A stretch of 64,000 nt of DNA from Patescibacteria group bacterium (GTDB taxonomy: Bacteria; Patescibacteriota; Minisyncoccia; Phycocordibacterales; UBA12079). Below are positions 1,225 to 58,641 of the stretch, one piece after another; within the stretch, counting starts at the first letter, position 1; each line of letters starts with the position of its first letter. Below the pieces are notes generated by a model. The model made no database searches and had not been told where the DNA came from. It saw nothing but the letters and a program-made list of their open reading frames with translations. The stretch lies in contig JAZDMO010000007.1 of NCBI GenBank assembly GCA_043800905.1, forward strand, positions 1,627-65,626. Reading direction: 5' to 3'. The position numbers and the translations under genes were made by a program.

Positions 1225-1536
1225 TTGTTTGAAATGGATAATGACGGAAAAAAATTTGTAAAAATAAGGAAGTGTAATTTTGATGTCGAAATTTCAGTTG
1301 ATGCGATTAAAAAAATAGATAAGTATGATACCTTTTGTTTATTTTCAGGAGACGCTGATTTTGTTTATTTGAATAACTTTTTAAGAAAAAGGGGCAAAAA
1401 GGTTATTTTAATAAAAGGGGGTTATATTACAAGTAAATTACGGAAATCGACTGATTTAATTATAAACGCACAGAAAATCAAAAAACATATCGCTAGAATA
1501 GAACAAAGACCTGACAAGTCAGGTCTTTGTGGATAG
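1225..1536 (+). pseudogene. NYN (LabA-like PIN-fold RNase) domain C-terminal fragment, probable gene remnant
   Basis: 103-aa ORF with a TTG start. It matches the C-terminal half of NYN domains (DTFCLFSGDADFVYLNNFLRKRGKKVILIKG). The upstream in-frame sequence hits a stop at 1201 and no N-terminal NYN half (vfiDGeN motif) is found in any frame. Confidence 0.4.
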
Positions 1537-1678
1537 TTTTGCCGAATGACCTCGGCTAAGGTGTACTAATATACTATACCGAGAGGTCGCTAAAGTCAAC
1601 AAAAATCTTGGGGATAAATATATAGAATTTCAGGATATATGGTTTGAAAATAAAGATTAAAAGTTATATAAATAGCTT

Positions 1679-2770
1679 ATGAAAATAGAATTAAATAAGA
1701 TTAAAATAAGGGAAGTAATTGAGGGCTATAAGGATAGTGCTGAGGAGGGTGTTGTGGCTTACAAAGGAAAACTTGATATTCGTCCTAAATATCAAAGAGA
1801 ATTTGTTTATTCAGGAAAACAGAGAGATGCAGTGCTTGAAACTATCAAGCAAGGTTTCCCTTTGAATGTGATGTATTGGATGATACGCGATGACGGAGGT
1901 TTTGAATTATTGGACGGGCAACAAAGAACAATTAGTATTGGGCAATATGTGGCTGGAGATTTTTCTTTAGGTGATAGGTTTTTTCATAATTTAACAAAAG
2001 AAGAACAAGAGCAAGTTTTAGATTATGAATTGATGATTTATTTTTGTGAAGGAACAGACAAAGAGAGATTAGATTGGTTTAAAACAATTAATATTGCAGG
2101 AGAGAAATTAACTGATCAAGAATTGAGAAATGCAGTTTACACAGGATCATGGCTTTCCGATGCTAAATTGAAATTTAGTAAAACTCATTGCGCCGCATAT
2201 CTTTTGGCGAATGACGGAGGAGCTCTTTTGAAAGGTTCTCCAATCAGACAAGAATATCTTGAGACAGCTCTTGCTTGGATAAATAACGGGGAAGTAGCTG
2301 ATTATATGGCAAAACATCAACATAATAAAAATGCTGACGAATTGTGGAATTATTTTCAAGATGTGATTACTTGGGTGCGAAAAACTTTTGTAAATTATCG
2401 AAAAGAAATGACTGGTGTGAATTGGGGAGAACTATATAATTCATTCAAAGATAAAAAACTTAATGCGATAAAATTAGAAACAGAGATTGCTGAATTGATG
2501 CAAGACGAAGATGTCACCAAAAAGTCAGGGATTTATCCTTATGTTTTAACAAGACAAGAAAAATATCTTTCAATCCGAGCTTTTGATGATAAAACGAAAA
2601 GAGAAACTTATGAAAAACAAAAAGGAATTTGTGTGAAGTGTGGAGAGAAATTTGTGATAGATGAGATGGAGGCGGACCACATTACTCCTTGGTATGAGGG
2701 CGGAAAAACAATCACAGAAAATTGTCAGATGTTGTGTAAAGATTGCAATAGGAGAAAATCAGGAAAATAA
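1679..2770 (+). CDS. DUF262 (ParB-like NTPase, DGQQR motif) fused to a C-terminal HNH endonuclease; GmrSD/type IV restriction-like defence nuclease
   Basis: The N-terminus has KYQREFVYSGKQ and LLDGQQRT, typical of the DUF262/ParB-like nuclease-NTPase domain. The C-terminus has the CxxC...DHIxP...N...CxxCN pattern (CVKCGEKF..ADHITPW..ENCQMLCKDCNRRK) of an HNH nuclease. Confidence 0.6.
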   Translation: MKIELNKIKIREVIEGYKDSAEEGVVAYKGKLDIRPKYQREFVYSGKQRDAVLETIKQGFPLNVMYWMIRDDGGFELLDGQQRTISIGQYVAGDFSLGDRFFHNLTKEEQEQVLDYELMIYFCEGTDKERLDWFKTINIAGEKLTDQELRNAVYTGSWLSDAKLKFSKTHCAAYLLANDGGALLKGSPIRQEYLETALAWINNGEVADYMAKHQHNKNADELWNYFQDVITWVRKTFVNYRKEMTGVNWGELYNSFKDKKLNAIKLETEIAELMQDEDVTKKSGIYPYVLTRQEKYLSIRAFDDKTKRETYEKQKGICVKCGEKFVIDEMEADHITPWYEGGKTITENCQMLCKDCNRRKSGK

Positions 2771-2825
2771 TTTGATAAAATCCAACTATATTAAAAAAAC
2801 AGGGATTTAATAAAAAACCAAAATC

Positions 2826-3665
2826 ATGAAATTTAAATTATTTGATAGGGAGAGGGATAAAAAAGTTTTAAAGGCGGTTATTATTGCCGTTGTTGTGATA
2901 GGTTGTTCTATCACAATTAAAGATGAATTGGTTTGGCAATTTGGAGGAGAAAGTGATTACTATGATGATTATTCTTATACAGAAAATTATTTGGGTGAAT
3001 GTAATGTGGCTAAAATAGATATTAAGGGTTTCCTTGATGTTGAAGCTTATGAAGAAGGAGCTATTTCTTCTAGTGAAATTGTTGGGGCCATTGAAGATAT
3101 TCAAAATAATCCTGATCTTAAGGCCATTATTTTAGACATTGATTCTACTGGTGGAGTTCCTGTGGCTGGTGAAGAAATATCTAATGCTCTTAGCCGTATA
3201 GATAAGCCCACAGTGGCTTTGATTAGAGGTTTTGGTAATTCTTCTGCTTATTGGGTAGCTGTTGGTACAGATAAAATTTTTGCTTCTGCTAATTCTGATG
3301 TGGGATCTATTGGAGTGACAATGTCTTATTTAGATAATGCACAACAAAATCAAATTACAGGTTTGAATTATAATTCAATCAGTTCGGGAAAGTTTAAAGA
3401 CACTGGAGATCCTAATAAAACTTTAACTTGGGAAGAAAAACAATACCTAATGCGAGATGTGAATATCATCAATGATAATTTTATAAAAGCCGTAGCGGAA
3501 AAAAGAAATTTAGAGATTGCAAAAGTTAAAAAACTAGCTGATGGCTCTTCGATGTTAGGACAAATGGCTTTGGAGAATGGTTTGATTGATGAAATTGGTG
3601 ATATGTATGCTGTGAAAAAATATCTTGAAGACCTTATCGGCGAAGAAGTGATTTTGTGTGATTAA
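2826..3665 (+). CDS. sppA: signal peptide peptidase SppA (S49 family, ClpP/crotonase fold)
   Basis: N-terminal TM helix. Motifs KAIILDIDSTGGVPVAGEEI and RGFGNSSAYWVAVGTDKIFASANSDVGSIGV are typical of S49 protease IV. Confidence 0.7.
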   Translation: MKFKLFDRERDKKVLKAVIIAVVVIGCSITIKDELVWQFGGESDYYDDYSYTENYLGECNVAKIDIKGFLDVEAYEEGAISSSEIVGAIEDIQNNPDLKAIILDIDSTGGVPVAGEEISNALSRIDKPTVALIRGFGNSSAYWVAVGTDKIFASANSDVGSIGVTMSYLDNAQQNQITGLNYNSISSGKFKDTGDPNKTLTWEEKQYLMRDVNIINDNFIKAVAEKRNLEIAKVKKLADGSSMLGQMALENGLIDEIGDMYAVKKYLEDLIGEEVILCD

Positions 3666-3785
3666 ATGATATTTGGATATTTGGTTTTTTTAATTAGTAT
3701 ATTATTTTTTTTGAGTTTAATTTAGATGTCAAATTTACTAACATCTATGTTTGACTTTTTTACATCAAAAGATATACTATAAAAT

Positions 3786-4469
3786 ATGAGCAATAAATAT
3801 TCTATTCTCTTAAAAGATTTAAGACTTAAAAAAGGTTTAACTCAAAAGGAATTAGCTAAAAAATTAGGAATTTCTCGTCCTTCCTATATTGCTATCGAGC
3901 AAGGGAAGAGAGACATCACCCTGAATGAATTTGAAAAATTGTCAGGTGTTTTGAGTGTGTCTTTTGATGATTTTGAGAGAGGGGAATTGCCTGATTATGA
4001 AAAATATAAACAAATGATTTTAACCTTTTTGAGAATGAGTGATGGAATAACCAAAACTAAGTTAGCTAAGTTGGTGTATCTTTCTGATTTTGCTTGGTTT
4101 TATTTTAATTTAAAAAGCATGAGTGGAATGCCTTATAGGAAGATTCAATACGGTCCTGTTCCTGATGCTTACTTTAGAGCTATTGATGAATTAGAAAATA
4201 GTGGAAAAATTTTAATTAATTGTAAACAGAAAGATGATAAAGAAATGTTTATTATTTCTGAATCAGAGAGCAATAAAAACCAAAAGTTAGATTCCATTTT
4301 GAAAGATGAGGTTGATTTAATGAAAAATATTTTTAAAAAGTGGAAAAATAAAAAGACAGCAGAAATTGTTAATTTTACCCATAATCAATTGCCGTATTTA
4401 ATCGCAGAAGATGAAGAGATTATTTCTTATGGCCTTATAACTCAAGAAAATCCAGATGAAATCTATTAA
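3786..4469 (+). CDS. XRE-family HTH fused to a Panacea/DUF4065 (SocA/PanA-like) domain; antitoxin-like
   Basis: N-terminal LKKGLTQKELAKKLGISRPSYIAIEQGKRDITLNEFEKL is a Cro/C1-type HTH. The C-terminal ITKTKLAKLVYLSDFAWFY...YGPVPD resembles the DUF4065/Panacea antitoxin domain. It overlaps the next ORF by 14 bp. Confidence 0.55.
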   Translation: MSNKYSILLKDLRLKKGLTQKELAKKLGISRPSYIAIEQGKRDITLNEFEKLSGVLSVSFDDFERGELPDYEKYKQMILTFLRMSDGITKTKLAKLVYLSDFAWFYFNLKSMSGMPYRKIQYGPVPDAYFRAIDELENSGKILINCKQKDDKEMFIISESESNKNQKLDSILKDEVDLMKNIFKKWKNKKTAEIVNFTHNQLPYLIAEDEEIISYGLITQENPDEIY

Positions 4470-4881: not shown

Positions 4882-6456
4882 ATGCAAAAGGTTATAGATT
4901 TTATTCAAAAACATACTAACTTAAGTTTTTTTATTTTAGCGCTAGTTTTGGTTTTGGTGATGTATGGTAGTAGTCTAGCCGGCTCTTTTGTTTTTGATGA
5001 TAGGTCTATTATTAGTTATCAAAGTTTTTTTCAAAATCCCGCAAATTGGTGGGAAGTTTTAAAGATGCCCTATTGGGGTTATGAAGCGGGGCTTTATCGT
5101 CCGGTGACAATTTTTTCCTATGGGCTAAATTTTGCTATTTTTGGTTCTGGAGCTTGGAGTTTTCATCTTATCAATATTCTTTTGTATGTTTTTTCGGGTT
5201 ATCTTTTATTTTTGTTTCTCAAAAAAGTTTTATGGGGAAAATATCGCAGGCAGATTGCTTGGGTGAGTGCACTTTTATTTTTGATTTTACCGATTCATAC
5301 CGAAGTGGTGGCAAATATTGTAGGGCGAGCGGAAATTTTTGCCTTAATGTTTTCTTTATTAGGTCTTCTTGAGCTGATTAAAAAAAATCCAAACAAATGG
5401 ATAACCGCTTTATGGTTTTTCTTAGCTATGGGTAGTAAGGAAACGGCTATCGCGGTTTTGCCTATTGCGTTTTTAGTGTGGTTTTCTCGATCTAAGTTTT
5501 TAGAAAAAAAGAAAATTACTCTTCGAGATTTAGAGTTTTATTTTTTCCCAGCTTTTTTGTCGGCTTTTGTTTATTTAAGTTTCCGTTTTCTGATTTTAGG
5601 TTTTTATTTTTTTTCCAATAACGCGAGTCTCGTAGAAAATCCTTTAAAATTTGTTTCTGTTTCAGAAAGAATTTTTACAGCTTTGAAAATTTTATCTATG
5701 TATGTTTATAAAAGTTTAGTGCCCTTCAATCTTTGTTCTGATTATTCTTATAATCAGATTGTAGTTAGTTCTAGTTTTTGGGAAAGCGGAGTAATCGTCG
5801 GTTTTCTGATTTTAGTTTTTTCTTTTGTGGGAATTTTCTATTTTTTTAAAAAGAATTTTAATTTTACTTTGGCGTTGATATTCTTCTTCTTTCCTTTTTT
5901 TATAGTTTCTAATTTATGGAATGCTATCGGGACAATTGCAGGGGAGAGGCTTTTCTTTTATCCTTCAGTGGGTTTATGTATTTTCTTAGGAATATTTTTT
6001 GTTTGGTTGTGGAACTTAGCTAAAAGCGAAAATATCAAAAAAATTTTAATCACTCTATTTGTGTTATTGAGTTTTTTTTATACAATCCGCAGTTTTGACC
6101 GAGCCTTAGATTGGATGAGCGAAGAAAAACTTTTTATTTCTGCAAGTCAGTGTGCACCTCAAAGTGTATTATCTCTTTCTAATTTAGCCACGGTTTATTA
6201 TTTTAAAGGAGATTATGAACAAGCAGAAAAGATTATTTTAGATTCTTATGAAATTTATGATGGTTATACAAAAGCTAATAATAATCTTGGTTTAATTTAT
6301 TGGAGAGGGGGAGAAATAGAAAAAGCTAAAGAGCAATTTTTTAAAACTTTTGAGCACTTTCCGCCCTATGAAGGGGTTTATGAAAATTTAGTTTTATTTT
6401 ATTTATCTCAAAATAATGAAAAAGAAGCTATGAAGTGGTATAAAATAGGTTATTAG
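4882..6456 (+). CDS. polytopic membrane protein with N-terminal GT-C-like (PMT/ArnT-type) glycosyltransferase region and C-terminal TPR repeats
   Basis: About 11 predicted TM helices. The early FVFDD loop motif is typical of GT-C aspartate-rich loops. The C-terminal approx. 120 aa has TPR-like repeats (ATVYYFKGDYEQAEKI, NNLGLIYWRGGEIEKAKEQF). Confidence 0.5.
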   Translation: MQKVIDFIQKHTNLSFFILALVLVLVMYGSSLAGSFVFDDRSIISYQSFFQNPANWWEVLKMPYWGYEAGLYRPVTIFSYGLNFAIFGSGAWSFHLINILLYVFSGYLLFLFLKKVLWGKYRRQIAWVSALLFLILPIHTEVVANIVGRAEIFALMFSLLGLLELIKKNPNKWITALWFFLAMGSKETAIAVLPIAFLVWFSRSKFLEKKKITLRDLEFYFFPAFLSAFVYLSFRFLILGFYFFSNNASLVENPLKFVSVSERIFTALKILSMYVYKSLVPFNLCSDYSYNQIVVSSSFWESGVIVGFLILVFSFVGIFYFFKKNFNFTLALIFFFFPFFIVSNLWNAIGTIAGERLFFYPSVGLCIFLGIFFVWLWNLAKSENIKKILITLFVLLSFFYTIRSFDRALDWMSEEKLFISASQCAPQSVLSLSNLATVYYFKGDYEQAEKIILDSYEIYDGYTKANNNLGLIYWRGGEIEKAKEQFFKTFEHFPPYEGVYENLVLFYLSQNNEKEAMKWYKIGY

Positions 6457-10917: not shown

Positions 10918-12639
10918 ATGGGTTTTACAGATATTTTAATAAAGAAAAATATCATTTCTGCTTCTCAGCTAGCAGAGTTTCAAAAAGAAGTTGACTCCTC
11001 TAAAGATTTAGAGGAAGTTTTGGTTGAAAAAAATATTTCTCGTGAAGAAATAAATAAAGCCAAAGAAGAATATTATAATCTTCCCGTTAAAGATTTAAAT
11101 GTTGATAATTTTAATTATAAGGCTTTAAAATATGTTCCAGAAAAATCCGCGGTTCATTATGAATTTATTCCTTTGGGAGTTAAGGATGGTTTTTTAGAGG
11201 TGGGTATTGTTGATCCATCTAATATTGAAGCGAGAGATGCCATTGAATTTATTTCCTCAAAAGTTAAATTGCCTTTTAAACTTTTTTTGATTTCCAAGGC
11301 TAATTTTAGAATTGCTTTAGATGGCTATAAAGGTTTGCGAGGAGAAGTTTCTCAAGCTTTAACAGAACTAGAGTTGGAACTTAACGAAGAAGAAGAAAAG
11401 ATTAGTAACGCTGTTTCTAAAATAAAAAAAGGACATTCTGATTATGATGCTACGATTACTGAAGACGCACCAGTAACTAAGATTGTGGCAACTATTTTGA
11501 GATATGCTTCTGAGGGAGAAGCTTCTGATGTTCATATTGAACCTTCGGCAGAAAAAGTTCGAGTACGTTTTCGTGTTGATGGAATTTTGGATACTCATCT
11601 AGTTTTACCAACCAAAGTTCATGGGGCGGTGGTAGCTAGAATAAAAATTTTATCTCAGATGCGTTTGGATGAAAAAAGAAAACCGCAAGATGGAAGATTT
11701 TCTGCCAAAATAGATAGTCATAAAGTTGATTTTCGTGTTTCTACTTTTCCTACTTACTATGGAGAAAAAGTAGTTATGCGTCTTCTTGAAGCGGATAAAG
11801 GAGCAGGGCGATTGGAAGAAACTGGTTTGAGTGATAGTCATTTGAAAATTATTAAAAGATGTATTCAAAGACCGCATGGTTTAATTTTAATTTCTGGTCC
11901 GACTGGTTCAGGAAAAAGTACCACTTTATATTCTATTTTGAGTGAAATTGATCGTTTAAGTAAAAATGTGTTATCTCTGGAAGATCCTGTTGAAAGAAAT
12001 GTTGAAGGGGTTAGTCAGTCACAGGTGCGAGCTGAGATTGGTTACACTTTTGCTAGTGGATTAAGAACTATTTTGCGACAAGACCCAGATGTTATCATGG
12101 TGGGAGAGATTCGAGATAAGGAAACAGCTGGTTTGGCTATTCAAGCTGCCTTAACTGGTCACTTAGTTTTTTCGACCATTCACACCAATGACGCAGTGGG
12201 GGTAATTCCTCGTTTAATTGAAATGGATGTGGATCCTTATTTGATTGCCCCAACTCTTATTTTAGCTATGGCACAAAGACTAACTCGTCGTTTGTCTGAA
12301 GGCTCTGGCAAACCTTTACCAATAGAGGGGAGTATTAAGATGATGATAGATAAGGCTTTTGAAAGTTTGCCTCAAGAATTTAGAAAAGATATTGTTTTTC
12401 CAGAAAATGTTTATGAAGCTAGTCCGACTAAAGATAACCCTACTGGATTAAAGGGGAGAATTGGTGTTTATGAGTTGATTGAAATGGATAGAGATATTGA
12501 AGAAACTATTTTAAAAAACCCAGACAGTATGGATTTGGAAACTTTAGTTCGTCAGAAAGGAATGATTACCATGAAACAAGATGCTTTGATTAAGGCTTTT
12601 AATAAAATTATCCCTTTTGAAGAAGCTAATAAACTTTAA
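10918..12639 (+). CDS. pilB: type IV pilus assembly ATPase PilB (GspE family)
   Basis: Walker A GPTGSGKSTTLYS, Asp box, His box TIHTNDAVG. The N-terminal GSPII-like domain is typical of PilB. Confidence 0.85.
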   Translation: MGFTDILIKKNIISASQLAEFQKEVDSSKDLEEVLVEKNISREEINKAKEEYYNLPVKDLNVDNFNYKALKYVPEKSAVHYEFIPLGVKDGFLEVGIVDPSNIEARDAIEFISSKVKLPFKLFLISKANFRIALDGYKGLRGEVSQALTELELELNEEEEKISNAVSKIKKGHSDYDATITEDAPVTKIVATILRYASEGEASDVHIEPSAEKVRVRFRVDGILDTHLVLPTKVHGAVVARIKILSQMRLDEKRKPQDGRFSAKIDSHKVDFRVSTFPTYYGEKVVMRLLEADKGAGRLEETGLSDSHLKIIKRCIQRPHGLILISGPTGSGKSTTLYSILSEIDRLSKNVLSLEDPVERNVEGVSQSQVRAEIGYTFASGLRTILRQDPDVIMVGEIRDKETAGLAIQAALTGHLVFSTIHTNDAVGVIPRLIEMDVDPYLIAPTLILAMAQRLTRRLSEGSGKPLPIEGSIKMMIDKAFESLPQEFRKDIVFPENVYEASPTKDNPTGLKGRIGVYELIEMDRDIEETILKNPDSMDLETLVRQKGMITMKQDALIKAFNKIIPFEEANKL

Positions 12640-12679
12640 AAATTTAGGGATCGTTTAATAAATTATGTTTCTTTTTGTG

Positions 12680-12712
12680 AAGGATTTTGCAGAGCAAAAT
12701 CCTTCCGTTTGT
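12680..12712 (+). terminator. intrinsic terminator after pilB
   Basis: Hairpin gaaggattttgc-agag-caaaatccttc followed by a T-run. Confidence 0.5.
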
Positions 12713-12754
12713 TTTATTTATTATTACTAGATTACGAAGTAATTTAGTATTCAT

Positions 12755-12843
12755 CGTCTGTCTGTTCGTCATTACGAGGAAAAAATTAAGGTTCAAAAGT
12801 TTTAAAACTTTTGAACCTTAATTTTTGACGTGGTAATCCAGAA
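12755..12843. repeat. copy of an approx. 90-bp hairpin repeat (cgtcattacgagg..aaggttcaaaagttttaaaacttttgaacctt..gacgtggtaatccag)
   Basis: Near-identical to 19029-19132. The internal hairpin differs from that copy by compensatory changes (ggttc/gaacc here, gcctc/gaggc there). Confidence 0.6.
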
Positions 12844-12859
12844 TTATATATTAAGACTT

Positions 12860-13340
12860 AATGAAAAATTAATCAGGCTGTTTTATAAAATTCTTTCTGG
12901 ATTGCTTCGTCACTCCACTGCGTTCCGTTCCTCGCAATGACGGACGACGAAAAGCAAAACGTCTCTGCGAGATCAGATTTTTTAATAAAAATCTGATCGT
13001 GGCAGTCCAGACTTGTGAAATCACGAAGTGATTTAATTAAAAAACTAAAACCTCACTCGCAAAGACGAAAAACAAAGTTTTTCGTTACGTTTTGCGTTAA
13101 GCAAAACGTCTCTGCGAGGCACGAAGCAGTCCAGTAATAAAGTGTTTTTAGGAGGAGTGAAATAATATGATACTTGTCCGCCTTGCCTGCCCCTGCACGC
13201 CGGCAGGCGGGGGTAGACAGGTTGCTTCGTAAACTCGCAATGATGAATGACGAGATGCTGGGTTGATTTATAGACTTGTAATGATAAGTGAATGGATTTT
13301 TTAAAGTAAGATCCCCCTTCCTAAATTTATTCGCCGTGGC
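12860..13340. mobile_element. composite cluster of nested GC-rich MITE-like modules filling the pilB-pilT intergenic region
   Basis: No ORF. Contains atcaggctg..ctggattgcttcg (an inverted copy of the terminus seen at 16090-16129), cctcgcaatgacg, gtctctgcgag twice, cagtccag, and ccttgcctgcccctgcacgccggcaggcggg (an inverted copy of the 58556/63797 module). Modules recur at 15894, 19029, 25482, 31203, 58337 and 63775. Confidence 0.55.
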
Positions 13341-13461
13341 GGGTGGTGGTGAATTTGCGGGTTTTCCCCAGCAAGAGAATATATTTCTTTTCTGTTTTCT
13401 TGTATAATTATAATTAAGATTTGGGTTTTAAAAAATCCAATAGCTCAATAAATTAAATTTT

Positions 13462-15738: not shown

Positions 15739-15800
15739 ACAGTTTTCAACTTTCAATTATCAGTTTTCATTAAATTTTCAATTGATAAATTATCAGTGAC

Positions 15801-16429
15801 ATGACCTATAATTTAGAGGAAAGAACCGCTAAATACTCTGAAAATGTTATTTCTTTGATTAAAAGTGTCAAAATAAGGCTTAATGAAAAAAATATCAGGC
15901 TGAAAATGATAAACTAGCTAGTCTTAATATTATTTAAAATGATTTTTAATTAAAAACTTAAATATTTAAATTATAAAGAATTTAATTGTTTTAAAAATTT
16001 CTAGACTGCTTCGCAAGCTCGCAGAGACGAATGATTTCATCGTCCATTCGTTATTGCGAGGAATAAGATGCAGAGAAACAGAATCTTATGACGAAGCAAT
16101 CCAGAAAGAATTTCATAAAATAGCCTGATTAATTTACTATTAAGCTCAAAATAACATTGTTAAACAAAAACATAGTTGAACAATTATCAAAATCAGCCAC
16201 AAGTATCGGGGTTAACTATCATGAAACGAATAACGCTAGTTCTAAGAAAGATTTTATAAATAAGATTTATTTTTGTAAAAAAGAGGCTAACGAAACAAGA
16301 TATTGGTTAGATTTATTAAATAAAAATGAAATAAAGTTTACAGAAGATATTGGTTTATTGAAAAAAGAGAATCAAGAACTAGTCATGATTTTCCAGAAAA
16401 TAATCAATACTTCAAACAACAAACATTGA
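15801..16429 (+). pseudogene. four-helix-bundle protein (23S-rRNA-IVS-protein family) gene, split into an N-fragment (15801-15920) and a C-fragment (16157-16429) by an inserted repeat element
   Basis: The N-fragment translation MTYNLEERTAKYSENVISLIKSVKIRLNEKNI... matches the family N-terminus and ends at a stop inside the inserted element. The C-fragment QLSKSATSIGVNYHETNNASSKKDFINKIYFCKKEANETRYWLDLL matches the family C-terminal half. Confidence 0.5.
15894..16129. mobile_element. 236-bp MITE-like element with 8-bp terminal inverted repeats (atcaggct/agcctgat), inserted into the four-helix-bundle gene
   Basis: Termini atcaggct (15894) and agcctgat (16122). Inside are ctcgcagagacg, cgttattgcgagg and gacgaagcaatccag modules. 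The same terminus plus adjoining approx. 35 bp occurs inverted at 12872-12906. Confidence 0.5.
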
Positions 16430-16574
16430 AAATTGAGAATTGTAAACTGAAAATTGTTTTGATTTATCCCCAGAAAGACTTTCTTTTCTTTGCTTTTTGG
16501 GAGTATAATCAAATAAACGCAAATTATATTTGTTATTAATTATTAGTTATTAATTTAATATTATTAAAAATAAT

Positions 16575-18407: not shown

Positions 18408-18917
18408 ATGAAGAAATTTATGAAAAAGGATATAAAAGGTTTTTCCCTTATTGAACTTTTGATTGTGGTTGCAATCATGGGAATTCTATCTGCTGTTGTT
18501 TTGAGTTCTCTAGGAACCGCTCGTCAAAAAGCAAGAGACGCTAGAAGAATTTCAGACGTAAAGGATGCCGCTAAGATTTTAGTTATTGCTTCTGATGTGG
18601 GAGGGGTGAGCATCTCAGGTTGTGGTTCTCCTGATGTCGCCTTAAAAACTTGTGGAGACCCTGATATTGAAAATGATCCTTTTATGGATTTAAGAAGTTA
18701 TTCTGACCCTTCTGTTTCTGAAGAAGTTTGTTCAAGTGGAAGAATTATTGCCGACGGTCCCTGTGAGTACGGAATATCTGATATGACTGGTGATGAAGCG
18801 CCCACCACAGAAGATTACCAAATCTGTTTTTTCCTTGAATATGGAGCGGGAGATCTTTCCGCTGGCCTAAATTCTGTTGTGGGTCCAATTGGAAACTTGG
18901 TAGCTGGTTGTAACTAA
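18408..18917 (+). CDS. type IV (major) pilin, paralog B
   Basis: The first approx. 60 aa and last approx. 35 aa are nearly identical to the gene at 16575. The central approx. 70 aa diverge. 78 bp of upstream sequence is conserved with 16497-16574. Confidence 0.75.
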   Translation: MKKFMKKDIKGFSLIELLIVVAIMGILSAVVLSSLGTARQKARDARRISDVKDAAKILVIASDVGGVSISGCGSPDVALKTCGDPDIENDPFMDLRSYSDPSVSEEVCSSGRIIADGPCEYGISDMTGDEAPTTEDYQICFFLEYGAGDLSAGLNSVVGPIGNLVAGCN

Positions 18918-18984: not shown

Positions 18985-19022
18985 TTATAAAGTAAAACCC
19001 GTCTTTAGGCGGGTTTTTATTA
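18985..19022 (+). terminator. intrinsic terminator after pilin paralog B
   Basis: gtaaaacccgtctttaggcgggtttttatt. Confidence 0.55.
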
Positions 19023-19028
19023 TCCTTT

Positions 19029-19132
19029 CTCGCAATGACGGTCCGCTTAGGGCGGACCGTCATTGCGAGGAAAAAATTAAGCCTCAAAAGTTTTAAAACT
19101 TTTGAGGCTTAATTTTTGACGTGGCAATCCAG
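19029..19132. repeat. palindromic repeat element (ctcgcaatgacggtccgc..gcggaccgtcattgcgagg + aagcctcaaaagttttaaaacttttgaggctt + gacgtggcaatccag)
   Basis: Two perfect hairpins in series. Same family as 12755-12843 and 31203-31302. Confidence 0.6.
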
Positions 19133-25465: not shown

Positions 25466-25481
25466 CATATTTTTCAAATGT

Positions 25482-25618
25482 TGGATTGCCACGATTAAAT
25501 TTTTATTAAAAAATTTAATCTCGCAAAGACGGATTTTGCAAAGCAAAATTCGTTAGGAAAATCAAAGATTTTCGTCTTTGCGAGGAGTGAAGTGAAACGG
25601 AACGACGAAGCAATCCAG
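25482..25618. repeat. MITE-like element with ctggattgcc / gcaatccag ends between gatC and gatA
   Basis: Termini ggattgcc (25483-25490) and gcaatccag (25610-25618). Interior palindrome ctcgcaaagacg...cgtctttgcgag. The tracked gatA ORF start at 25592 lies inside it, so the real start is probably downstream. Confidence 0.55.
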
Positions 25619-28094: not shown

Positions 28095-28165
28095 CGCGGG
28101 ATGGTGTAGTGGTCGCACGGGAGGCTCATAACCTCCAGGGGTTTGTTCGATTCAAACTTCCGCAA
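28095..28165 (+). tRNA. tRNA-Met (anticodon CAU), initiator-like with a C1·A72 mismatch
   Basis: Manual fold: acceptor cgcggga/ttccgca with 1-72 C·A; D-stem gtgt/gcac; anticodon stem ggagg/cctcc with loop ctCATaa; 4-nt variable loop; T-arm gtttg-ttcgatt-caaac. CCA is not encoded. Followed by terminator aaaaccaccttaattaaggtggtttt (28170-28205). Confidence 0.6.
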
Positions 28166-28261
28166 CAAGTAAACAAAACCACCTTAATTAAGGTGGTTTT
28201 GTTTTGGGAAGTATTTAAAATTTTTTGTAAATATGTTATATTGTTTTTCGTATTAATAAAT

Positions 28262-28335
28262 GTCGGCGTAGCTCAGTTGGTTAGAGCGCAGCACTCATAA
28301 AGCTGAGGTCGAAGGTTCAACTCCTTCCGTCGACA
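28262..28335 (+). tRNA. tRNA with CAU anticodon: elongator Met or Ile2 (lysidine)
   Basis: Acceptor gtcggcg/cgtcgac; D-arm gctc-agttggtta-gagc; anticodon loop ctCATaa; T-arm gaagg-ttcaact-ccttc. Confidence 0.65.
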
Positions 28336-28387
28336 CACAGATTGTTGAGAAAATTAAGGATATCTGTTAAAGTATGTGTGCACTTTG

Positions 28388-28460
28388 CGGGTGTAGCTCA
28401 GCTGGTTAGAGCGTCCGCCTGTCACGCGGAAGGTCGAGGGTTCAAGTCCCTTCACTCGCG
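28388..28460 (+). tRNA. tRNA-Asp (GUC)
   Basis: Acceptor gcgggtg/cactcgc; anticodon stem tccgc/gcgga with loop ctGTCac; T-arm gaggg-ttcaagt-ccctt. A terminator hairpin follows at 28470-28500. Confidence 0.75.
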
Positions 28461-28551
28461 CAAAATTAAAAAACTGAAACTTTTTGTTTCGGTTTTTTAA
28501 TTTATATTGAAAATATATAGTTTTTCATATATTATTTAAATTGGTTTAAAA

Positions 28552-28627
28552 GCCAATGTAGCTCAGTTGGTAGAGCACCCCCATGGTCAGGGGGAGGTCT
28601 GCGGTTCAATCCCGCACATTGGCTCCA
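28552..28627 (+). tRNA. tRNA-Thr (GGU), CCA encoded
   Basis: Acceptor gccaatg/cattggc; anticodon stem ccccc/ggggg with loop atGGTca; T-arm tgcgg-ttcaatc-ccgca; 3' tcca. Confidence 0.75.
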
Positions 28628-28648
28628 ATTATAGAGGAGATGAGTTTC

Positions 28649-28721
28649 GCCCTCTTAGCTCATCTGGTAGAGCAACGGTATCGTAAATCGTAGGTGGTCG
28701 GTTCAAGTCCGACAGAGGGCT
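28649..28721 (+). tRNA. tRNA-Thr (CGU)
   Basis: Acceptor gccctct/agagggc; D-arm gctc-atctggta-gagc; anticodon stem acggt/atcgt with loop atCGTaa; T-arm gtcgg-ttcaagt-ccgac. Confidence 0.65.
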
Positions 28722-28807
28722 CAATAGATATTTTGGTAGTCGCCTCATCGGCGACCCGCTGGAGAGGAGGGTTCAATTCTGCGAGGTGACTCATGAGTTT
28801 TAATTAT

Positions 28808-31202: not shown

Positions 31203-31302
31203 GTGACGGTCGCCGAAGGCGACCGTCATTGCGAAATATTTTTAGAGAATTTTTTTGAAAAAATTTTTCAAAAAAATTCTCTAAAAATATTGTGGCAATC
31301 CA
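31203..31302. repeat. palindromic repeat element (gtgacggtcgccgaaggcgaccgtcattgcg + long AT palindrome + gtggcaatccag)
   Basis: gacggtcgccgaaggcgaccgtc hairpin; tagagaatttttttgaaaaaatttttcaaaaaaattctcta palindrome; family terminus gcaatccag. Confidence 0.55.
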
Positions 31303-31404
31303 GAAAAAACTCTTAAATTTTAAACGGCTCAACCTGTTGAGCCGTTTAACAAGGCTATATTGCTTGTTATTTTATGAAAGAAAGTTATTTTTAAAAATTC
31401 ACAC

Positions 31405-39120: not shown

Positions 39121-40203
39121 ATGAAATTATTAATCGTAACGCAAAAAGTAGATAAGAATGATGATGTACTCGGTTTTATGCACGGGTGGATTTCTGAATT
39201 TGCAAAACATTGTGAAAAGGTGACAGTAATTGCTTTAGGTGTGGGTGAATATGATTTACCTCGAAATGTAAAAGTCTTATCCTTGGGAAAGAATAATTTG
39301 TTATTGCGAGGAGTGAAGCGAAGCGGAACGACGTGGCAATCCAGCAACAAAAGTCGTAAAAAATATATTTTTAATTTTTATAAATATATCTGGCAGGAGC
39401 GAAAAAATTACGATAATGTGTTTGTTCACATGAACCCCGAATACGTGGTTCTAGGGTCAATTTTATGGCGATTTTGGGGTAAAAGGGTGGGACTTTGGTA
39501 CACACATAAGGCTGTTAATTTAAAGTTAAGGATAGCTGAGAAAATGGCTAATTTGGTGTTCTCGGCTAGTTCAGAATCTTTTGGTTTAAAAAGCAAAAAA
39601 CTTCATATTACGGGTCATGGAATTAATTTAGAACAGCTTAAAATTAAGAAAGATAAAATTCAAAATGAGATTTTCAAAATGATTTTAGTCGGAAGGATTG
39701 CTCCCATAAAAAATCAAGACATCTTGATTAAATCGGCGGTAATTTTAAAAAATAAATATCTGGATTTTAAATTTAAAATTGATTTAATTGGTGGGGCTGA
39801 TTCATATGTTCAAAGAGAATATAAAGTGCTTCTTGAAAGTTTGGTTAAAACAAATAATTTAGAAAATGAAATTAGTTTCGTTTCTCCTGTCGCTAATAAA
39901 GAAATCAATGCTATTTATGAAAAAGCGAATTTAAGTTTAAATTTGTGTCCCACAGGAGGAGCTGACAAAGTGGTTTTGGAATCAATGGCTTGTGAATTGC
40001 CTGTTATAGTTTTTAATAAAACCTTTGAGAATATTTTACCCGAAGAATTAATTTTAGAAAAATTAGAACCAGAACTTTTAGCAGAAAAAATTTATGAAAT
40101 TTCTCAGAAGAAAAATTTGAATTTTGGATTAAGAGAAAGGGTTGAAAAAAGTCATAATTTGAAAAAATTAATCATTAAGATTTTAAATTTATATTATGCT
40201 TAA
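39121..40203 (+). CDS. GT-B glycosyltransferase (GT4-like) carrying an in-frame repeat-element fragment
   Basis: GT-B C-domain features (CPTGGADKVVLESMACELPVIVF). 39301-39344 ttattgcgaggagtgaagcgaagcggaacgacgtggcaatccag is a family half-element, translated as LLRGVKRSGTTWQSS. Confidence 0.5.
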   Translation: MKLLIVTQKVDKNDDVLGFMHGWISEFAKHCEKVTVIALGVGEYDLPRNVKVLSLGKNNLLLRGVKRSGTTWQSSNKSRKKYIFNFYKYIWQERKNYDNVFVHMNPEYVVLGSILWRFWGKRVGLWYTHKAVNLKLRIAEKMANLVFSASSESFGLKSKKLHITGHGINLEQLKIKKDKIQNEIFKMILVGRIAPIKNQDILIKSAVILKNKYLDFKFKIDLIGGADSYVQREYKVLLESLVKTNNLENEISFVSPVANKEINAIYEKANLSLNLCPTGGADKVVLESMACELPVIVFNKTFENILPEELILEKLEPELLAEKIYEISQKKNLNFGLRERVEKSHNLKKLIIKILNLYYA

Positions 40204-58336: not shown

Positions 58337-58641
58337 TTCGCAATGATATTTATTTACTGGATTGCCACACCGAGCGCCAAAAACTTTAATTAAAGTTTTT
58401 GGTGCTCGGCTCGCAATGACGAACGAACGGATGTTGGACCTGCCTGCCGGCAGGCAGGTTGCCATGATATCGCTCGCAATGACGAGATGCTGGGTTGCTT
58501 CGTAAACTCGCAATGACGAACTGACGAATAAACACTGGATTCCTCCCAAGCCTACCTGCCCCCGCCTGCCGGCGTGCAAGGGCAGGCAGGGCGGACAAAT
58601 GCCACAGAATTTTTTAAAACAAAAAATTCTTCGCAATGACG
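58337..58641. mobile_element. approx. 300-bp cluster of nested GC-rich repeat modules
   Basis: Contains ctggattgcc, ctcgcaatgacg three times, the 20-bp palindrome 58439-58458, gacgagatgctgggttgcttcgtaaactcgcaatgacg (inverted at 13215-13260), and tggattcctcccaagcctacctgcccccgcctgccggcgtgcaagggcaggcagggcgg (copy at 63775-63835). The ORFs tracked here on the minus strand are translations of the repeats. Confidence 0.6.

Follow-up and report, generated by a model that had tools for sequence, protein, structure and literature searches.

What kind of selection acts on a repeat whose two copies differ only where a change on one arm of a hairpin is answered on the other? The question is raised by a 64-kb stretch of the genome of a Patescibacteria group bacterium (assembly GCA_043800905.1, contig JAZDMO010000007.1, positions 1,627 to 65,626), hereafter called the window, in whose own coordinates all positions are given and nearly all of whose genes lie on the plus strand. 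An initial annotation had described here a hairpin repeat of about 90 bp in two copies, each just downstream of a pilus gene, had read the paired differences of the stem as selection on the secondary structure and not on the primary sequence, and had considered a terminator or an RNA-stability role. Our analysis argues that the two copies, A and B below, are probably recently diverged members of a dispersed, noncoding repeat of the repetitive extragenic palindromic (REP) type, which would depend on its hairpin and be nonautonomous.

Extraction and alignment of the sequences confirmed two copies, with a true unit of 75 nt: the homology runs exactly from CGTC to CCAG, and the flanks diverge right outside. 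The second copy, which had been drawn as 19029-19132, keeps only 19058-19132; the extra 19029-19056 is part of the 5' half of a further unit, in inverted orientation. The junction of copy A reads GAG-GA / GA-CGTG around a perfect inner palindrome of 21 to 23 bp, and the inner stems of both copies are perfect palindromes (23/23) with neither spacer nor wobble pairs. A and B differ at 6 positions in 75 nt, and since all six fall at paired positions, the difference consists of three compensated pairs and nothing else, with no uncompensated change. Two of these pairs (12791/12816 and 12792/12815) lie in the inner stem, as GGTTC/GAACC in one copy and GCCTC/GAGGC in the other, just as first reported. 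The third had been seen as variation at a purine and a pyrimidine position without being recognized as a pair: 12774 (A/G) faces 12834 (T/C) in Watson-Crick fashion within the 5-bp outer helix ATTRC/GYAAT. In a simulation, six random substitutions kept every pair canonical in only 0.4% of the trials. Folding with DNA parameters gave z scores of -7.1 and -8.1 for A and B against dinucleotide shuffles, none of 200 shuffles being as stable. Moreover, the pattern is independently replicated by a second pair of sister elements (12960-13010 and 25481-25531 of the window): among their seven differences, six form three compensated pairs, one in the outer helix and two in the inner helix, all from C-G to T-A, and the seventh lies in the unpaired tail.

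Both pairs belong to a family with the plan CGTC-ATTGC-GAR-(variable core)-YGWR-GCAAT-CCAG. At the 5' end stands the unpaired tag CGTC or TGTC, and at the 3' end an unpaired CCA(G) tail. Between them, the 5-bp outer helix ATTGC/GCAAT leads to a short conserved junction, GAR on its 5' side and YGWR on its 3' side, where GA/GA often adjoins the inner helix; we refer to this shell as the clamp. The core is a 2-bp C-GNA-G mini-hairpin in the minimal form, a tract of ~21 nt with AGYGR-like pentamers in the short form, and in the long form a hairpin that reaches up to ~27 bp and varies in sequence between copies. At least 16 elements were counted in the 64 kb, 8 per strand and mostly in unusually long intergenic gaps (Table 1). 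The unit end GTCATTRCGAGG has 11 matches in the window versus 0.15 expected, and the 3' motif has 9 versus 0.27. Tags in the window read CGTC, CGTT, or TGTT, and tails read CCAG in most full-length copies, with a few variants (e.g., CCAA and CTAG). The A/B subfamily has only its two copies in the window; a search of the metagenome collection anchored on the clamp edges returned no match, and one anchored on the apex returned 54 loci, all of them other palindromes without the clamp. The 20-nt apex of A and B, CAAAAGTTTTAAAACTTTTG, also occurs in an unrelated multicopy palindrome of metagenome contigs, AACTTTC-CAAAAGTTTTAAAACTTTTG-GAAAGTT, and in plain terminator-like hairpins; its carriers are L168 (three copies), L185 (two copies), L147, L148, L153, L162, L163, L170, L172, L184, L191, L196, and L199, and none of these loci carries the CGTC clamp.

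Searching for the exact clamp around an interior of 18 to 48 nt retrieved 16 contigs of a viral collection and at least 119 reference-genome loci, spread over more than a dozen phyla and over genomes of 31 to 71% GC. The hosts include Bradyrhizobium, Rhodopseudomonas, and other Alphaproteobacteria, Gamma- and Deltaproteobacteria, Bacteroidota, Ignavibacteriota, Chloroflexota, several Patescibacteria, Firmicutes, Spirochaetes, Verrucomicrobia, Nitrospirota, Melainabacteria, and Acidobacteria, among more. The interiors are mostly clean hairpins, mutually unrelated in sequence. Covariation was scored in an ungapped alignment of 71 nonredundant elements comprising the clamp and nine interior bases per side, in which the eight base-proximal interior pairs had been left unconstrained by the search. 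All eight of these inner pairs showed double-sided changes, with four to six pair types each, and the covariation score reached 0.285 versus 0.127 ± 0.012 in shuffles (0 of 500 reached 0.285), slid registers giving 0.07 to 0.10. Over the whole structure (13 pairs, including the five invariant outer pairs), 76.5% of the cells were paired versus 24 to 49% in slid registers, and the figure for the inner helix alone (8 pairs) was 61.8%. The structural part of the initial annotation, a conserved fold whose stem sequence is free, is thus supported by A and B, by the three compensated pairs out of three in the second sister pair, and by the inner pairs across phyla. The other half of its claim, that primary sequence is not under selection, is not supported: more than 12 phyla share, as sequence, the ~25 nt on either side of the hairpin (CGTCATTGCGAG... 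and ...YGWRGCAATCC). The base adjacent to the junction, although unconstrained by the search, is A in at least 90% of the elements, and the 3' junction dinucleotide has two states, AA (231/336) and TG (93/336). In a fuzzy collection gathered blind to pairing (n = 386), the first stem pairs are A-T in 330 and T-A in 362 elements; ATTGC/GCAAT seldom carries substitutions, and double compensations are more frequent than independence predicts, but uncompensated changes also occur. Hence, the clamp is conserved mainly as sequence, and this sequence conservation ends at the clamp edges.

Among 298 elements across phyla, the tag is CGTC in 148 and TGTC in 121, and the tail begins with CCA in 100 (CCAG in 67, CCAT in 33), these being the commonest tails and yet an overall minority. 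In the count of arrangements (n = 129), 52 are in head-to-head (HH) dimers with tags outside and a median spacer of 23.5 nt, compared with 5 in the tail-to-tail (TT) arrangement with tags inside and 8 in tandem. The exception to the HH rule is L001, a viral-collection contig of 54% GC, whose intergenic gaps are occupied by head-to-tail arrays of three to five minimal units repeating every ~41 nt (2670-2857 and also 4984-5104, 11850-11966, and 12666-12782). The heptamer GCGAAGC was found in 66 of the 86 minimal forms, and the core C-GNA-G occurs with all four bases at N.

The link to pilus genes was followed up in the genomic context. Copy A lies downstream of a gene for a PilB-like ATPase (10918-12639) and copy B downstream of a pilin-like gene (18408-18917), and in both cases a separate terminator-like hairpin stands between the gene and the element. 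The T-run of A and B is paired within the stem, with no free U-tract downstream. The nearest relatives, whose PilB proteins are 73 to 76% identical, have the same pil operon with a plain terminator only, and no clamp element was found in it at the sites equivalent to A and B. The gaps measure 158 to 240 nt in the relatives versus 822 nt in the window between pilB and pilT, 157 to 241 versus 836 nt between pilC and the pilin gene, and 88 to 177 versus 308 nt between the pilin and peptidase genes, and A and B appear from this comparison to be lineage-specific insertions. Other elements of the window adjoin amidase, glycosyltransferase, and HlyD-like genes, and one lies in frame within a gene. 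For 125 distinct elements, flanking open reading frames (ORFs), which were called crudely, are codirectional in 34 cases, convergent in 18, and divergent in 5, and the elements next to codirectional ORFs are oriented sense in 15 cases and antisense in 19. With GC skew positive over the entire window and the elements divided 8 plus to 8 minus, there is no leading-strand bias either. These other neighbors, the unbiased orientation, and the element-free gaps of the relatives make the pilus association incidental and give no hint of a strand-specific RNA role; a dedicated terminator or 3' untranslated region (UTR) role is unlikely, given separate terminators upstream of both copies, nearest relatives whose equivalent sites are free of elements, and a family without strand bias. 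No recurrent neighboring ORF family or transposase was seen around the elements in 135 loci, no transposase was seen among the window ORFs scanned, and no gene for a REP-associated tyrosine transposase (RAYT) or other Y1 enzyme was found in the window or beside elements.

The closest known class is that of the CGTC-tagged REPs (Di Nocera, De Gregorio, and Rocco 2013, BMC Genomics 14:522, PMC3733652). According to that paper, these units carry an unpaired 5' CGTC tag (variants TGTC and CCTC), a continuous stem of 8 to 9 bp beginning with two A-T pairs, a loop of 4 to 5 nt, and a short unpaired tail with the consensus CCA; HH dimers dominate, TT dimers are rare, and head-to-tail (HT) dimers are negligible; the units sit between unidirectional or convergent ORFs, some copies are intragenic and in frame, and neither a dedicated or flanking transposase nor a mobilizing enzyme was found for them. 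The present family has the tag, the A-T and T-A first stem pairs, the CCA tail, the HH dimers, the location at gene 3' ends, the in-frame copy, and the lack of a flanking transposase. In place of the continuous stem it has the 5-bp outer helix, the GAR/YGWR junction, and a second helix of 2 to ~27 bp. As all the published traits except the continuous 8- to 9-bp stem with its 4- to 5-nt loop recur here, we classify the family as a variant of the CGTC-tagged REP superfamily, set apart by its interrupted stem and variable inner helix; CGTC-2 may resemble its core. Back-translated from the table of intragenic REPs in the same paper, CGTC-1 reads CGTC-ATTCCCGC-GAAA-GCGGGAAT-CCAG and CGTC-3 reads CGTC-ATTGCCGGG-CTTGA-CCCGGCAAT-CCA. 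The outer shell of the latter, CGTC-ATTGC...GCAAT-CCA (CGTCATTGC...GCAATCCA), is identical to that of the family described here. Canonical CGTC-1 and CGTC-3 units share loci with the present family, and the perfect form ATTGCGAG...CTCGCAAT had no match in the collected loci. CGTC REPs likewise form HH heterodimers with spacers of at least 20 nt, and their hosts include Bradyrhizobium, Rhodopseudomonas, Bacteroidetes, and Spirochaetes. They are, however, simple stem-loops, whereas the present family has an asymmetric junction followed by a second helix of free sequence or a pentamer tract; its host range exceeds the published one (Patescibacteria, Chloroflexota, Firmicutes, Nitrospirota, Melainabacteria, Acidobacteria, Verrucomicrobia, and others), and it forms the head-to-tail arrays of L001, an arrangement described as negligible in CGTC REPs.

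Other systems share some of these features. The Neisseria dRS3/NIME mosaics and the Rickettsia palindromic elements (RPEs) RPE-4 and RPE-6 (CGTC-1 and CGTC-4, PMC3733652) have the common shell CGTC-ATT...AAT-CCAG. They cluster with other small repeats in intergenic mosaics, as do the elements at 12640-13461 and 58337-58641 of the window, and RPEs insert in frame into protein loops as the present family does, but both have other stem sequences (ATTCCCGC, ATTCCGTGG), simple hairpins, and narrow host ranges. The GTAG-tagged REPs and their doublets, the REPINs, with the associated RAYTs (Bertels and Rainey 2011; Nunvar 2010; Ton-Hoang 2012), are also short hairpins with an unpaired conserved tetranucleotide at the foot, with inverted doublets, high copy number, and correlated structure-preserving changes, and they provide a working model for the recognition of such elements as folded single-stranded DNA. 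Membership is rejected because the tag is CGTC or TGTC instead of GTAG and the window yielded no Y1 transposase; moreover, REPIN-RAYT systems are lineage specific and vertically inherited, whereas the present clamp is near-identical across phyla. A and B were also rejected as miniature inverted-repeat transposable elements (MITEs), as no direct repeats flank either copy, and as integron attC sites, the RYYYAAC/GTTRRRY core sites being missing in both clamp orientations and a cassette organization being absent. Intrinsic terminators resemble the elements in being stable hairpins downstream of a gene but not in the AT-rich stem, the conserved clamp, the occurrence in both orientations, and the missing free U-tract; a terminator scan skipped the element and called the separate upstream hairpins. 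Rfam 15 at the gathering score gave only tRNAs in the window and no match in 18 loci with GC-rich versions, and permissive E values at copy A gave only subthreshold generic hairpin (microRNA) matches. A literature search with the sequence strings returned coincidental primers or nothing, and later REP surveys do not include the present core. Two further readings of the clamp were dropped. Pairing of the CGTC tag with a 3' GACG, as a pseudoknot or alternative helix, shows no covariation and an implausible loop geometry, and GACG is missing from several copies (in 58357-58421, CGTC is kept while the position of GACG reads GGTG). A classical kink-turn would fit the GA/GA, but the internal loop appears to be 3 x 4, not 3 x 0.

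One element (39299-39344) encodes the peptide LLLRGVKRSGTTWQSS within a GT4 glycosyltransferase. Alignment of the homologues (P0122 to P0142) places it in a loop after the motif SLGKE that is variable in length and holds different small repeats in each lineage. At the orthologous site, L143 has a short form sharing ~87% identity with the copy of the window, against 64% for the proteins, L144 has a minimal form whose outer pair T-A is changed to C-G, and L145 keeps GAGG...GACG within a different outer helix. The persistence of the element in this loop reflects either constraint on the element or homogenization between copies, and its behavior resembles that of the Rickettsia RPEs. The SLGKE loop is a hot spot for in-frame insertions of small repeats among lineages of the candidate phyla radiation (CPR), with clamp-derived inserts (SLRG...TTWQS or SLRAIAKQS), a FSIFNFQSIFN type, and a QKSKVYKVKSK type.

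How would such a repeat acquire its compensated changes? On the REP-type reading, the element would be maintained or propagated as a folded single strand of DNA whose tag, clamp, and tail, at the base of the hairpin, would be recognized by an enzyme or host factor, by analogy with RAYTs and with the Y1 enzymes of IS200/IS605 acting on GTAG REPs. Only copies keeping both helices would stay competent while others would drop out, which would leave compensated substitutions without any role for the pilus gene; effects on transcripts, such as a barrier to 3' exonucleases, would be a side effect. A structure at the DNA level fits the minimal core C-GNA-G and the frequency of GCGAAGC in minimal forms. 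The oligonucleotide d(GCGNAGC) is said by Hirao et al. to be a hyperstable DNA mini-hairpin. Several points weigh against this reading. No mobilizing enzyme was identified among the neighboring ORFs or in the window scans. With relatives only ~75% identical in PilB, gaps were compared by length and content and no filled versus empty site is available at nucleotide resolution, so that mobility is inferred from the patchy distribution, the sharp unit edges, and the nested mosaics. The A/B subfamily consists of two copies, so its compensation statistics rest on three pairs. As described above, stem and loop are not shaped as in the published definition of CGTC REPs, the orientation counts come from the crude ORF calls, and the ~87% identity of the intragenic element against 64% for its protein suggests constraint or homogenization beyond simple selfish decay.

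The same compensation could come from selection on RNA, with the hairpin serving the upstream pilus gene as a 3'-UTR terminator or as a barrier to 3'-5' exonucleases. The RNA folds of A and B are very stable (-29.8 and -34.2 kcal/mol), the elements favor gene 3' ends (convergent over divergent ORFs), and such roles have been proposed for REPs (PMC3733652). We nevertheless hold this unlikely: canonical terminators already stand upstream of both copies, the stem is followed by no free U-tract and draws no terminator call, the relatives lack the elements at these sites, one copy lies in frame within a gene, no Rfam family matches, and sense and antisense orientations are balanced, as are the two strands among genes that are mostly on one of them. 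Compensation would say nothing about function if it arose by mutation, through intrastrand template switching (quasi-palindrome correction) that copies a change from one arm to the other; the perfect inner stems of A and B would be its expected product, and their two adjacent changes could be a single templated event. This we consider improbable, as 60 nt and the conserved asymmetric junction separate the two compensated bases of the outer helix, unrelated hairpins sit within one clamp in many phyla with their register fixed to it, some copies carry an internal mismatch (58357-58421), and the conserved unpaired bases of the clamp would be left unexplained. The clamp might instead be a functional motif with a dedicated partner, that is, a site bound or processed by a widely conserved protein of the host or of a mobile element, or a small catalytic or regulatory RNA, with GAR/YGWR and tandem GA/GA as its core and the hairpin as a structural spacer. 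Between CPR bacteria and Bradyrhizobium its ~25 nt hardly change, the junction-adjacent A and the two-state dinucleotide fit such a motif, and an element is kept at the orthologous intragenic site across genera, with GAGG...GACG of L145 inside another helix. We regard this as rather doubtful since no partner was found among the neighboring or window ORFs, strand bias and an Rfam match are absent, copy number and distribution are patchy, with nearest relatives free of the elements at the A and B sites, and the conservation of the clamp is largely imposed by the search pattern.

Table 1. Elements of the family and associated features in the 64-kb window
Feature	Position	Strand	Remarks
Terminator-like hairpin with T-run	12679-12705	+	Between PilB-like ATPase gene and copy A
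Copy A, long form	12767-12841	+	75 nt; CGTC tag, outer helix ATTAC/GTAAT, CCAG tail
Short form	12897-12942	-	21-nt pentamer-like core; tags-outside (HH) partner of copy A, 55-nt spacer
Long form	12960-13010	+	Outer helix CTGC/GCAG, inner hairpin ATCAGATTTTTT-AATA-AAAAATCTGAT; sister of 25481-25531
Minimal form	13107-13134	+	CGTCTCTGCGAG-GCA-CGAAGCAGTCCAG
GC-rich module	13170-13222
Minimal form	13217-13245	-	3' clamp followed or interrupted by GC-rich palindromic module 13170-13222
Minimal form	16001-16029	-	Within 271-bp MITE-like insertion
Long form	16049-16104	+	Within 271-bp MITE-like insertion; inner stem ATAAGAT/ATCTTAT
Terminator-like hairpin with T-run	18994-19017	+	Between pilin-like gene and copy B; equivalent hairpin alone in relatives
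Inverted partial 5' half (CGTCATTGCGAG)	19029-19040	-	With 5' end of copy B forms palindrome CTCGCAATGACGGTCCGC-TTAG-GGCGGACCGTCATTGCGAG
Copy B, long form	19058-19132	+	75 nt; as copy A, outer helix ATTGC/GCAAT
Long form	25481-25531	-	Sister of 12960-13010
Short form	25573-25618	+	Immediately upstream of amidase gene
Long form	31224-31303	+	55-nt inner palindrome
Short form	39299-39344	+	In frame within GT4 glycosyltransferase ORF 39121-40203
Four-element cluster	58357-58641	-	Members in the rows that follow
Cluster member, long form	58357-58421	-	Tolerates an internal mismatch
Cluster member, minimal form with GC-rich insertion	~58440-58484	-
GC-rich module	58440-58470
Cluster member, minimal form	58490-58518	-
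Cluster member, long form	~58535-58641	-	Interrupted by GC-rich module
GC-rich module	58540-58600

Several other small repeats accompany the elements. A GC-rich palindromic module (CCTGCCTGCCGGCAGGCAGG or GTCCGCCYTGCCTGCCCYTGCACGCCGGCAGGCGGGGG) stands directly after the GCAA of the 3' clamp in three elements of this genome of 31% GC, a placement which suggests that GCAA^TCC is a preferred point of insertion or breakage; a module resembling this GC-rich palindrome, CCTGCCGGCAGGCAGG, is present in L141. Two mini-hairpins of 13 nt, ATTAC-GAA-GTAAT and ATCAC-GAA-GTGAT (12731-12746 and 13020-13035), are one compensated pair apart (T-A to C-G) and resemble the outer helix closed directly by a GAA loop. 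The 271-bp MITE-like insertion (15877-16147), with imperfect terminal inverted repeats GGCTTAATGAAAAAAATATCAGGCTG / TAGCCTGATTAATTTACTATTAAGCTC and a 7-bp duplication, AAAATAA, splits a PF05635/TIGR02436 four-helix-bundle gene ("23S rRNA intervening sequence protein," 15801-16429); joining 15801-15876 to 16155-16429 restores an intact protein of 116 amino acids (TIGR02436, 3-108 of 109), and the terminal repeat and subterminal sequence of the insertion recur at 12853-12896. This gene was considered as a general partner of the family and rejected, being beside one copy only, with no such ORF in 135 loci. It is flanked by inverted repeats of ~30 nt of the TTTTCAATTNTCAATTTTCA type (15739-15790 and 16430-16460). 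In the relatives, repeats of this type enclose only a tiny GC-rich palindrome or a small hairpin in the pilB-pilT gap (L141:2783-2865; L136:11729-11900), and their translation FSIFNFQSIFN is also found in the glycosyltransferase loop of P0125 and P0142; they apparently form a further family of small repeats in these CPR genomes. Elsewhere in the window, a cluster of five tRNA genes (Met, Met, Asp, Thr-GGT, and Thr-CGT) occupies 28095-28722 on the plus strand, and the genes at 1225-4469 (an NYN-domain fragment, a GmrSD_N and HNH endonuclease, and a helix-turn-helix plus SocA/Panacea antitoxin-like protein) are likely defense or toxin-antitoxin genes.

The compensatory changes that raised the question are genuine, and they mark a REP-like repeat and not a regulatory hairpin of pilus genes. 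The family combines a conserved asymmetric junction, a free inner hairpin, a near-identical clamp across distant phyla, including small CPR genomes, and insertion in frame into proteins. The translations of the elements (peptides of the ...SLRG... and ...ARND... types) could be misread as coding by gene callers. As a variant of the CGTC REPs with a strict motif, small host genomes, and a clear pattern of presence and absence, the family gives a sharper handle on the missing partner. It is a more speculative idea, to which we give limited weight, that the clamp CGTC-ATTGC-GAR...YGWR-GCAAT-CCA, with its tandem GA/GA and its junction of two states, is a specific and deeply conserved recognition module for a single widely distributed partner. 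This could be a host factor, or else a transposase or recombinase of a new type that acts on single-stranded DNA. If so, the conservation of the clamp from CPR bacteria to Bradyrhizobium would make the problem of the "orphan" CGTC REPs tractable by phylogenetic profiling.

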